Made by a program: the position numbers and the translations under genes. This document shows, piece by piece, positions 3,960 through 12,896 of a DNA stretch of 17,390 bases (its first letter is position 1; every line of letters starts with the position of its first letter). The stretch covers positions 1-17,390 of the forward strand of contig JAVZYR010000014.1 of the NCBI GenBank assembly GCA_038999435.1. Direction: 5' to 3'. The notes under the pieces were generated by a model, which was not told the DNA's origin, did no database searches, and worked only from the letters and a program-made list of their open reading frames with translations. This DNA comes from Candidatus Aenigmatarchaeota archaeon. GTDB taxonomy: Archaea; Aenigmatarchaeota; Aenigmatarchaeia; QMZP01.

Positions 3960-3974
3960 ATGGGCCCGGAGGGA

Positions 3975-4137
3975 TTCTCTCTGGAAACCCTCAAGGTTTC
4001 CAGCCATCCGGGAGCTGTTTCGCTTCGCTCCACAACGCTTCCGGAAGCGTGCCCGCAAGCGCTTTCTTCTTGAAAGGTTTTGGAAGCGGTCAGCTTCTTC
4101 TTTCCGCGAGCGCTTTCTTCTTGAAAGAAAGGGCTCA
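3975..4137 (-). other. 163-nt T-loop (59/60) intron of tRNA-Arg
   Basis: Interrupts TTCGAA^TCCCTC. Ends AGAG-AA, which partly pairs with TTCG, followed by a bulge. Multi-hairpin and GC-rich. The exact splice register is inferred from BHB geometry. Confidence 0.8.
4053..4127 (-). repeat. 24-nt direct repeat pair (23/24 identical) separated by 27 nt, inside the tRNA-Arg T-loop intron
   Basis: CTTTCAAGAAGAAAGCGCTCGCGG (4127-4104) and CTTTCAAGAAGAAAGCGCTTGCGG (4076-4053). Confidence 0.9.
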
Positions 4138-4159
4138 TTCGAACCCTCGACCCCCGGCT

Positions 4160-4192
4160 TTCTTCATTTTTATCAGCTCTTCTAAGAAGACT
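4160..4192 (-). ncRNA. 33-nt canonical 37/38 intron of tRNA-Arg; candidate minimal box C'/D' methylation guide
   Basis: BHB geometry: CTTC (32-35) pairs with intron GAAG; bulges TA^A and AA^A. Contains CTTAGAAGA-G-CTGA-TAAAA-ATGAAGA. The intron call is firm; the guide function is inferred. Confidence 0.6.
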
Positions 4193-4215
4193 TAGAAGAC
4201 CGGTGCTCTATCCAA

Positions 4216-4243
4216 TTGCTTGCCCTTTTATTTAAAAAGGGCT
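4216..4243 (-). other. 28-nt D-loop (15/16) intron of tRNA-Arg
   Basis: GCTC-AG^A-[GCCCTTTT TAAAT AAAAGGGC]-AAGC-AA^T: relaxed bulge-helix-bulge with an 8-bp intron hairpin. Confidence 0.85.
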
Positions 4244-4263
4244 CTGAGCTACGGGCCCATATC

Positions 4264-4845
4264 TTATTTTAGAAAAATTGTAATAAAGATTGCTGTCAAA
4301 GGTGGTATGAGAAGGTTGTCATCGATTATATACTTCAGCTTCTTGTTTTTAACGAGCACAGGTATTAGTTCCACGAATGTTGCAAAAACAGAGACTGGTA
4401 TTGAATACAGACCTATAAAATACCATGAAGTTAGTGAACCAAAAAAGAATGCAAGGCTGCCCTCAATGCTCTTTTCTCCTATCTTATGTCTACCTGCAAA
4501 TTTCCCAATCAATGTTGCAAGTGCATCACCAACAACAAGAATAAGGCATGCTGCTGATGCTGTGTTAAGAGGAAATAAAAGGAATGTCAGGCCCATAGAG
4601 AAGAAAAACCAGAACGCGCCAATGAGTGGGAATTCTGTTTCTCTTTCAAATGAGAGAATAAATTTTCTAAAATTTTTTTCAGCAGGATGTAACATCACGC
4701 CCCATCTCAAATAAACAAGATAGACAAACATGAAAAATGCTATCATAAAACACCAAGAAAATATCATACTTCCAATAAACTGGGCAATAATTATGAATAT
4801 CAACCCTGAGAGATGTACAAACTGTCTTCTTATCTCCCTTTTCAT
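4264..4845 (-). CDS. Dolichol/phytol (polyprenol) kinase family membrane protein (CTP-dependent)
   Basis: EIRRQFVHLSG, GDALATLIGK...KSIEGSLAFF and DDNL motifs; several hydrophobic helices. Confidence 0.85.
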   Translation of the reverse strand: MKREIRRQFVHLSGLIFIIIAQFIGSMIFSWCFMIAFFMFVYLVYLRWGVMLHPAEKNFRKFILSFERETEFPLIGAFWFFFSMGLTFLLFPLNTASAACLILVVGDALATLIGKFAGRHKIGEKSIEGSLAFFFGSLTSWYFIGLYSIPVSVFATFVELIPVLVKNKKLKYIIDDNLLIPPLTAIFITIFLK

Positions 4846-11964: not shown

Positions 11965-12066
11965 TTTTAGCATCTACACATTTGAAACAATGTCTTATGA
12001 TTTACAAATCCACTGATTATTTAATGTAAATTTTAACATAATAAATTATATGGGCCCGTAGCTCAG

Positions 12067-12105
12067 TGCTGTCACACCTTTCAATAAAAAGTGTGACGCG
12101 AGCAT
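12067..12105 (+). other. 39-nt D-loop (15/16) intron of tRNA-Ile
   Basis: GCTC-AG^T-[GC T GTCACAC...GTGTGAC GC]-GAGC-AT^T: perfect 4-bp central helix with two 3-nt bulges. Confidence 0.88.
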
Positions 12106-12149
12106 TGGTTAGAGCAACGGTCTTATAAGCCGTGGGTCGAGGGTTCGAA

Positions 12150-12261
12150 TGAGCCCTTTCTTTCAAGAAGAAAGCGCTCGCGGGCACGCTTCCGGAAGCG
12201 TTGTGGAGCGAAGCGGAACAGCTCCCGGACGGCTGGAAACCTTGAGGGTTTCCAGAGAGAA
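12150..12261 (+). other. 112-nt T-loop (59/60) intron of tRNA-Ile
   Basis: Interrupts TTCGAA^TCCCTC. 110/112 identical to the tRNA-Arg T-loop intron apart from a 51-nt indel. Four hairpins. Confidence 0.8.
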
Positions 12262-12275
12262 TCCCTCCGGGCCCA

Positions 12276-12896
12276 TCATAAAAATTTTGAAAAATCCTCT
12301 CTATCCAAATCTATTTCTTTTAAAGATTTCTCAAACTTTTTGACATAATCTTCCAATTCAAATTTTTTCCATAACTTCTCTATCCTTTCTCTATCTGCAG
12401 CAACAACTGGCTTTTTTGGCACAACACGACAGCACCCTGCATGCCTTTCTGACCATAGCCCAAGCCTTTTTGACAGGCTTACAATCTCTTCCTTATCAAA
12501 GCAAAGTAAAGGTCTGATGATTGGCACAGATGAAAATGAAGAGAGTGCGACAAGATTTTTCATTGTTTGTGATGCTTTTTGCCCAAGCGATTCTCCTGTA
12601 ACAAGTGCAGAAAAACCCATCTTTTTAGCTATACAACTACCAACCTTGTACATGCCTGCACGACAAAGAAGACATTGATAGCCTTCTGCTTTTGCAACCC
12701 GAGCAAGAAAGTTGCCCCATGGCACGACATACATCTTACTGTCAATCTTTTTTGCAGCAGATAAAACGGCATTTGCAGCACCTGTACAATAAAATGGATA
12801 AAGAACAAAATGTAGAAGTTTCACTTTATACTTTTGAGCTATTAATTTTGCAGCAACAGGTGAATCTATACCTCCAGAAAAAAGTGCTAAGAACAT
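12276..12896 (-). CDS. thiI: ThiI-like tRNA sulfurtransferase, PP-loop catalytic domain only
   Basis: LFSGGIDSPVA PP-loop, CLLCR, VTGESLGQKASQT, IRPLLCFDKEEI and GCC. 206 aa, with no N-terminal THUMP region. Confidence 0.82.
   Translation of the reverse strand: MFLALFSGGIDSPVAAKLIAQKYKVKLLHFVLYPFYCTGAANAVLSAAKKIDSKMYVVPWGNFLARVAKAEGYQCLLCRAGMYKVGSCIAKKMGFSALVTGESLGQKASQTMKNLVALSSFSSVPIIRPLLCFDKEEIVSLSKRLGLWSERHAGCCRVVPKKPVVAADRERIEKLWKKFELEDYVKKFEKSLKEIDLDREDFSKFL

Follow-up and report, generated by a model that had tools for sequence, protein, structure and literature searches.

The question raised by this locus is whether a tRNA intron of only 33 nucleotides (nt) can serve as a guide RNA for the modification of the very tRNA that it interrupts. 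The window analysed here, i.e. the whole stretch of 17,390 nt from a Candidatus Aenigmatarchaeota archaeon (contig JAVZYR010000014.1), carries on its minus strand a gene for tRNA-Arg(UCU) with three introns. It had been proposed in the first-pass annotation of the window that the intron in the anticodon loop of this gene is a half-size box C/D-type guide, which would direct 2'-O-methylation to the wobble nucleotide U34 of its own tRNA. Archaeal box C/D guides, according to the textbook description, require two box pairs. The comparative analysis reported here leads us to conclude that the intron very probably functions as a minimal self-guide to U34 of the box C/D type, as one of a set that extends through the class.

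The strings and coordinates listed for the intron in the first-pass annotation were all recovered in a minus-strand read of positions 4050-4400. In tRNA numbering, C27 lies at 4203, T31 at 4199, T34 at 4196 and A37 at 4193, followed by the intron (4192-4160), A38 (4159) and G39 (4158). It can be seen that the intron contains, in this order, a guide, 1 nt, CUGA, 7 nt and GAAGA (Table 1). First, the 9-mer CTTAGAAGA is perfectly complementary, in reverse orientation, to T31-A37 and the two bases that follow, which read AG in the precursor tRNA (pre-tRNA; i1 and i2 of the intron) as well as after splicing (A38, G39). Secondly, the fifth base upstream of CTGA (4181) sits opposite T34, as claimed. 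Thirdly, 7 bases, TAAAAAT, with TAAAA itself at 4172-4168, separate the final A of CTGA from the first G of GAAGA, a spacing at which the two boxes may fold as a kink loop (K-loop). The same segment also supplies one strand of the bulge-helix-bulge (BHB) structure for splicing: C32-C35 (4198-4195) pair with GAAG between the bulges U36-A37-i1 and A-A-A38. This is a canonical BHB, with a 4-bp helix and two 3-nt bulges at position 37/38, and the four pairs are also present in most orthologs. The pairing with the guide and the pairing in the BHB are mutually exclusive.

Table 1. Features of the tRNA-Arg(UCU) gene and of its anticodon intron, in window coordinates.
Feature	Position	Strand	Remarks
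Anticodon intron, canonical 37/38 position, 33 nt	4160..4192	-	BHB central helix 4/4 pairs
Guide element CTTAGAAGA	4178..4186	-	conserved core AGAAG = 4183-4179; A4181 pairs with U34 (4196)
D'-type box CTGA	4173..4176	-	exactly two bases (A4178, G4177) past guide core
C'-type box ATGAAGA	4161..4167	-	K-loop-capable with CTGA: G.A, A.G, A-U, G-C
GAAG, 3' strand of BHB central helix	4162..4165	-	same bases as kink GA-AG in tRNA-Arg(UCU)
tRNA-Arg(UCU) gene with 3 introns	3961..4258	-	G1 = 4258, A73 = 3961, anticodon T34 C35 T36 = 4196-4194
D-loop intron, hairpin, about 28 nt	4216..4243 (borders +/- 1-2 nt)	-	hairpin present in precursor fold
T-loop intron, about 163 nt	3974..4136	-	member of repeated modular intron family
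K-turn-like hairpin within T-loop intron	4086..4108	-	stem CGCGG/CCGC, AAA bulge, GAAG facing CUGA, 3-nt loop

Consistent with the single guide first proposed, one kink was found in the 33-nt intron and in its homologs. The intron contains no second antisense element, no second box pair and no guide to position 39, and the bipartite arrangement of C/D plus C'/D' is absent from it and from its homologs. Therefore, it is regarded as a variant functioning like a C/D guide and not as an ordinary box C/D small RNA (sRNA). An H/ACA-type reading of the intron was also considered and was dropped, there being no lower stem, pocket or ACA.

If the intron acts as a guide, its boxes and their spacing should be retained in related genes. 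BLAST of the gene against 40 relatives and the window genome (41 genomes) gave seven orthologs spanning the intron, from which, together with the window gene, alignment A1 and covariance model R1 were built. R1 was then run on the order as a whole (91 genomes) and on a sample of 151 genomes drawn from across the phylum, every one of which falls in a single class. R1 also matches other tRNAs, and the loci were parsed by script for a 5-bp anticodon stem, U33, R37 and then the T-arm. An Arg(UCU) arm is contained in 27 of the 30 loci from the order-wide search. Among 20 further best matches, 17 were parsed as Arg(UCU) and one more later, the other two being Lys(UUU); additional Arg(UCU) arms were obtained from other orders (16) and from genome G078 (one). 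In total 63 genomes were parsed, 47 of the 91 in the order of the window genome and 16 from other orders of the class, and the anticodon intron is present in all 63. The 39-nt intron-less matches to R1 that were checked turned out to be other tRNAs: in six genomes the match is tRNA-Arg(CCU), and in G026 it is tRNA-Trp.

The introns with one kink and one guide span 28-95 nt. The core [AG]GAA[GA], followed by exactly two bases and NNGA, was found in 59 of the 63 arms, so that the box stands at a fixed offset as had been predicted, and U34 faces the fifth base upstream of the box in 63 of 63. To see what chance would give, 51 homologous introns were shuffled with the last six bases held fixed (102,000 shuffles). 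The 6-nt guide by itself appeared in 27,281 of these, and the full layout (6-nt guide, 2-nt spacer, NNGA, kink) in 360. The signal of the single sequence being weak, it is the comparative data that carry the case beyond chance.

The kink was analysed in 59 distinct Arg(UCU) sequences, 58 of them parseable for it. At the D' place these read TCGA (20), CTGA (15), TTGA (15), ATGA (2), TGGA (1) and AGGA (1), the rest being TCTA (3), TCAA (1) and one script mis-parse. The boxes without G belong to L062, L068 and L069 (genus g14) and to L067 (g9), in which guide, stem, bulge and GA are all retained. Past the box there is a stem of 2-8 bp in 47 arms and a loop in 11, and then, in 54 of 58 arms, a 3-nt bulge reading N-R-U, followed by GA. 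In these motifs one recognises the core of box C (R-U-G-A) and a D box whose first half is relaxed (Y-Y-G-A); together they are predicted to give both sheared G.A pairs of a kink turn (K-turn). There is one such box C/box D pair per intron, with the tandem G.A of a K-turn or K-loop, and it is degenerate beyond GA. As many as 38 distinct kink stems were counted, the first pair being G-C (36), G-U (4), U-A (3), C-G (3) or A-U (1), and these changes in the kink hairpin are compensatory. Stem covariation was counted by script, the variable hairpin not being alignable in the MAFFT alignment A2; four odd rows (L159, L074, L148 and L064) are script mis-parses in which the layout is unchanged by eye.

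Two details of the first proposal have to be modified at this point. The D'/C' K-loop that it described is possible in the tRNA-Arg of the window, and G001, G028 and a number of genomes from other orders share this form (CUGA, 7 nt, GAAGA); however, it is a minority form, and in the majority of relatives there is a true, stemmed K-turn, which by its sequence looks like a loop-capped terminal C/D motif. The deviation of the C' box from RUGAUGA had been ascribed to the double duty of GAAG as a BHB strand. GAAG is indeed dual in this gene, but the kink GA-AG coincides with the BHB strand in 16 of the 58 arms only. In the other 42 the kink GA lies apart from the BHB strand (4 nt upstream in 27, at other offsets in 15) and is still not followed by UGA. 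Therefore, the kink is conserved in its own right and is no by-product of the BHB.

The guide helix was counted on alignment A2 (27 arms, 26 distinct), with nt 31-37 and i1-i3 set against the guide. The core AGAAG of the guide element is invariant in both A1 and A2. The helix is 89.4% paired, while shuffles gave 80.6%, none of 500 reaching the observed value, and slid registers gave 40-51%; kinship among the genomes means that these counts overstate the statistical weight. Pairs 32-37 are nearly invariant because the anticodon loop is fixed. The pairs beyond them vary: i1 pairs as A-U in 11 arms and as U-A in 10, and i2 in four Watson-Crick types (C-G 6, U-A 5, A-U 2, G-C 2). Position 38 of the spliced tRNA is always A. 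Since the guide extension covaries with the intron bases i1 and i2, the partner of the guide is the unspliced pre-tRNA, and the guide of this 37/38 intron pairs across its own exon-intron junction. The pairing with tRNA positions 31-39, as first described, is exact in this gene, but the duplex that is conserved consists of nt 32-37 plus the first 2-3 intron bases. Nucleotide 31 is paired in A2 as U-A (8), C-G (4), A-U (2) or U-G (2) and is unpaired in 10.

The two exclusive pairings were then compared by folding. The unconstrained minimum free energy fold pairs the anticodon loop with the guide, and not in the BHB, in 20 of the 27 arms, and forcing the BHB costs 1.6 to 8 kcal/mol, in energies that ignore G.A pairs and proteins. 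Given this preference in the model, the precursor probably starts in the guide fold and must refold before splicing.

To see whether the layout is limited to tRNA-Arg(UCU), the window genome was scanned for anticodon arms in whose intron six bases are perfectly complementary to nt 31-36 and an NTGA is so placed that position 34 faces the fifth base upstream of it. Of 16 matches, the four with short introns are real tRNAs, namely Arg(UCU), Leu(UAA), Trp(CCA) and Glu(UUC), and the remaining 12, with gaps of at least 60 nt, look like chance. The Leu, Trp and Glu modules all aim at N34, and in Glu(UUC) the kink GA and the BHB strand are separate. The Leu and Trp genes of the window genome were run by BLAST through the order and then parsed, with NNGA counts used. 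The layout is present in 14 of 16 Leu(UAA) arms (the other two are variants), in 20 of 21 flagged Trp(CCA) arms (the 21st has one mismatch) and in 4 of 6 Leu(CAA) arms. The other two Leu(CAA) genes, L094 (G053) and L110 (G005), have a guide that fits the UAA anticodon loop, with A opposite C34; the anticodon may have changed recently, or the guide may serve the sister tRNA. The single-contig relative G057 has modules in Trp, Arg(UCU), Met(CAU), Gln(UUG) and Lys(UUU), and Met(CAU) modules occur in G109 and G090 too.

The guide thus changes together with the anticodon across eight tRNA families, as the proposal would have it, and N34 lies opposite base 5 in the Leu, Trp, Glu, Gln and Met modules as well. 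Lys(UUU) differs within the order of the window genome: a four-base spacer (C-R-U-R) puts C32 at the fifth position in seven genomes (G000:C11:12030-12090; L070, L083, L173, L197, L198, L202), while in other orders the Lys(UUU) of four genomes keeps the ordinary spacer of two bases. The Lys(UUU) module of the window genome has GG, not GA, after the bulge.

Other tRNAs are without the device. In G057, Thr(UGU) has a 69-nt intron without the module, and no anticodon intron was found in Ala, Ile(GAU), Thr(GGU, CGU), Asn, Asp, Lys(CUU), Val (three), Ser(GCU), Phe, Arg(UCG) and Arg(GCG). The layout is likewise absent from the introns of Val(UAC), Asp(GUC), Ile(GAU) and Thr(UGU) in the window genome, from His(GUG) introns in four relatives and from Ile(UAU) introns in two, and Arg(CCU) has no anticodon intron in the genomes checked. 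Read with the standard genetic code, the carriers of the module appear to be those tRNAs that read codons ending in a purine within split boxes (AGR, AAR, GAR, CAR, UUR, UGG and AUG).

The proteins on which a box C/D guide depends are encoded in the window genome, as the proposal required: fibrillarin (PF01269, 266 bits), Nop5 (PF01798, 219 bits) and L7Ae (PF01248, 107 bits) exceed the Pfam cut-offs, and there is a second, weaker match to the L7Ae family. The splicing endonuclease EndA is encoded at a contig edge. Nop5 has 309 amino acids (L002:1492-2421, G000:C6) and aligns with residues 93-372 of Sulfolobus Nop5, the coiled coil and the RNA-binding domain being present. Elp3 was not found in the window genome; across the order, 8 of 91 genomes score above the cut-off for it, and G013 and G028, both among the eight, carry the Arg module too. 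The idea that the module replaces Elp3-type U34 chemistry therefore finds little support, as both occur in these two genomes.

How does this intron compare with known systems? The euryarchaeal tRNA-Trp intron contains both C/D and C'/D' motifs, with two guides for C34 and U39, and its guide also spans the exon-intron junction. What follows on published work is drawn from the accessible parts of the papers cited. In reviews of 2014 and 2024 (PMC4090602, PMC11408192), a guide lodged within a tRNA intron is presented as unique to tRNA-Trp. The Arg(UCU) intron is like the pre-tRNA-Trp of Haloferax volcanii, and Pyrococcus sR50, in that a 37/38 intron addresses its own wobble base by the fifth-base rule and acts before splicing, the guide pairing and the BHB being alternative folds (PMC4090602, PMC11408192). 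The median length given for the Trp intron is 65 nt (PMC4090602). In contrast to it, we find here one kink and one guide, in tRNA-Arg(UCU) and in seven other tRNA families. A C/D-like RNA within an intron outside tRNA-Trp was also reported by Randau in 2012, from another DPANN archaeon, in the 66-nt intron that interrupts elongator tRNA-Met in Nanoarchaeum equitans (PMC3491384). It is described as having a GC hairpin and a single copy each of box C and box D; in the accessible text of that report there is no target rule, comparative set or mention of Arg(UCU).

Position 34 is, moreover, a target of stand-alone box C/D sRNAs: in Pyrococcus they target N34 of Leu(CAA), Leu(UAA), Met and Trp (PMC7994747), and in Pyrobaculum sR26, sR27, sR45 and sR46 target N34 of Trp, Gln, Val and Thr (PMC6009581). 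The position is the same, the tRNAs are largely the same, and one of the two guides is used. However, these sRNAs come from separate genes, have two kinks and act in trans (except Pyrococcus sR50, which is the tRNA-Trp intron), whereas the guide described here lies inside its own substrate. The expected product has precedents, since Um34, s2Um34 and mchm5Um were found in archaeal tRNAs (PMC7668247). In a literature search with most subscription journals outside its scope, no single-kink intron guide was found described for tRNA-Arg or for this lineage.

Taken together, these results make it likely that the anticodon intron of tRNA-Arg(UCU) is a minimal single-kink box C/D-type guide which acts on its own precursor. 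From its layout we infer the following order of events. In the new pre-tRNA, nt 32-37 and the first intron bases would pair with the guide segment of the intron. CUGA and UGAAGA would then fold as a K-loop (as a stemmed K-turn in most relatives) and bind L7Ae, by which Nop5 and fibrillarin would be recruited. Because the fixed two-base spacer sets U34 opposite the fifth base upstream of the D-type box, we propose that fibrillarin would 2'-O-methylate the wobble ribose, and the RNA would then refold. A likely benefit of the device, as far as the standard genetic code allows it to be judged, is restricted wobble at position 34. A more general model is put forward tentatively, and we would not be surprised to see it fail: every decoder of purine-ending codons in split boxes would have, throughout the class, its own one-kink guide in cis, with the fifth-base ruler kept and splicing gated behind methylation of the wobble nucleotide. 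Under this model two precursors may perhaps share one Nop5 dimer, which could be why the ruler is kept with a single box pair.

Several observations weigh against the self-guide. As regards the sequences, the local fold of the intron is unremarkable for a single sequence (z = -0.99 against shuffles); the C' side reads AG, GA, CA or AA after GA instead of UGA; the D' side is off-consensus, often UCGA or UUGA; and 4 of the 63 arms lack the G of the D' box, reading TCTA or TCAA. Pairing of nt 31 is weak and is held in 26 of the 58 arms of the larger set. As regards the methods, the kink rule is lenient and was satisfied by 84,490 of the 102,000 shuffles, and R1 was built from intron-bearing genes, with Arg(UCU) inspected in 47 of the 91 genomes of the order. 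As regards the host, the N-terminal, fibrillarin-binding domain of Nop5 is about 50 residues shorter than in solved archaeal Nop5, and two regular-expression scans of the 549-kb assembly gave 0 matches to a double-box C/D sRNA (shuffles 0-1), from which nothing firm follows, the scans being crude and the assembly 86% complete. Finally, a single-site archaeal complex studied by Hardin and Batey was active and site-nonspecific, specificity needing both C/D and C'/D' (PMC1635284). Such synthetic complexes ('hemi', 'half-mer'), of which a half-mer RNA of the box C/D type has been crystallised with its target (PMC6239191), are like the present intron in having one kink plus one guide (PMC1635284). 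The hemi-complex that lost site specificity is, however, a laboratory construct, whereas the introns are natural and their spacer is strictly conserved, and this conservation in the sequences argues that the ruler still works in them.

The alternative that survives best is that the kink is an L7Ae site with a role in structure or timing and adds no methyl group, holding the hairpin, presenting the BHB or perhaps coordinating the removal of several introns. K-turns bind L7Ae in many RNAs that are not guides, a second K-turn-like hairpin lies in the T-loop intron of the same gene, and the guide hairpin and the BHB are alternative folds. The lack of site specificity of single-site complexes in vitro (PMC1635284) points in the same direction. 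On the other hand, such a role leaves unexplained why the spacer is invariant with N34 always at the fifth position, and why the device is confined to tRNAs whose counterparts elsewhere are known targets of wobble methylation; tRNAs with several introns, such as Ile(UAU) of the window, manage without it. We consider a structural role unlikely.

It is still less probable that the intron is a real guide for something else, either for another modification or, once excised and circularised, acting in trans on rRNA, a different tRNA or the like. Circularisation does occur in archaea, both of excised tRNA introns and of C/D sRNAs (PMC7994747), the tRNA-Tyr intron of the window genome has a perfect K-loop with no guide upstream of it in the linear form, and two Leu(CAA) genes have a guide matching UAA. 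In every family, however, the guide tracks its own anticodon, and its 5' extension covaries with its own first intron bases, which exist in the precursor only. That the layout arose by chance, or as a by-product of BHB formation and of the internal TCTTC-TTA-GAAGA hairpin, is barely credible: the double duty of GAAG, the A/G-rich intron, the non-significant single-sequence fold and the ease with which shuffles yield a 6-nt guide would allow it, but not the conservation in 63 genomes with compensatory stem changes, the separation of kink and BHB strand in 42 of 58 arms and the rarity of the complete layout among shuffles.

The gene in which the intron lies was described as well. The window genome is a 549-kb assembly of 30 contigs, and four sequencing runs contain the locus, all of them DNA from one hot-springs study and labelled hot springs metagenome. 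In scans of the window, the tRNA-Arg(UCU) gene was detected neither by ARAGORN nor by Rfam at the gathering score, and the sole tRNA called by each of them was tRNA-Pro(GGG). Its exons agree with those of the same-genus ortholog L006, which has the anticodon intron only, and the fold of the whole precursor gave z = -4.66. The D-loop intron is missing in the orthologs L006, L007 and L008, where GCTCAG runs straight into YTGGATAGAGC. The placement of the T-loop intron is ambiguous (56/57 or 60/61) because GAAT is present at both of its ends. Parts of it match 27 places in the window genome, including positions 12127-12276 (plus strand) of the window, which represent the T-loop intron of tRNA-Ile(UAU), built from the same modules. 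Its K-turn-like hairpin was found by regular expression in 4 copies in the genome, 2 with CTGA and 2 with CTAA, and from its sequence it is a possible second L7Ae site in the tRNA-Arg precursor. The idea that this kink is the general source of the missing second box pair was rejected, as L006 has no T-loop intron.

Some further tRNA genes were noticed in the course of this work. The tRNA-Ile(UAU) gene, at about 12050-12276 of the window (plus strand), has D-loop and T-loop introns and no anticodon intron; it is missed by ARAGORN and seen by Rfam in part, below the gathering score, and its anticodon loop differs from that of Arg(UCU) at position 35 only. The 27-nt intron of tRNA-Tyr(GUA) (G000:C6:17085-17111, L089) contains CUGA, 6 nt and AUGAUGA, a K-loop of textbook form, with no guide upstream of it in the linear intron. 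If this intron is circularised, a 10-nt stretch would lie between C' and D'; no complement to it was seen by eye in the exons of tRNA-Tyr, and no wider target search was made. In G057, a relative of the same family, locus L180 (G057:C1:693829-693902) is a tRNA at 62.9 bits whose anticodon, UUA, would decode UAA, a stop codon; BLAST found no counterpart of it in the window genome.

Intron-borne guides, as given in the accessible parts of the reviews, are known from tRNA-Trp only, to which the one report on tRNA-Met of Nanoarchaeum has to be added; a conserved one-kink version is now found in eight tRNA families and at least 63 genomes. For annotation, the layout provides a signature of tRNA genes that standard detectors miss. 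If the reading as a self-guide is true, the module would be a natural case in which the fifth-base ruler can be tested with a single kink. Under the more general model it would amount to a single-site C/D enzyme occurring in nature, in which that ruler is retained although the second box pair is absent, and one-kink modules could then stand for the ancestral state of box C/D guides or for their furthest reduction. For the organisms themselves, a one-kink self-guide would explain why the intron is retained in these particular tRNAs, and it would show how very small genomes secure the accurate reading of two-codon boxes.

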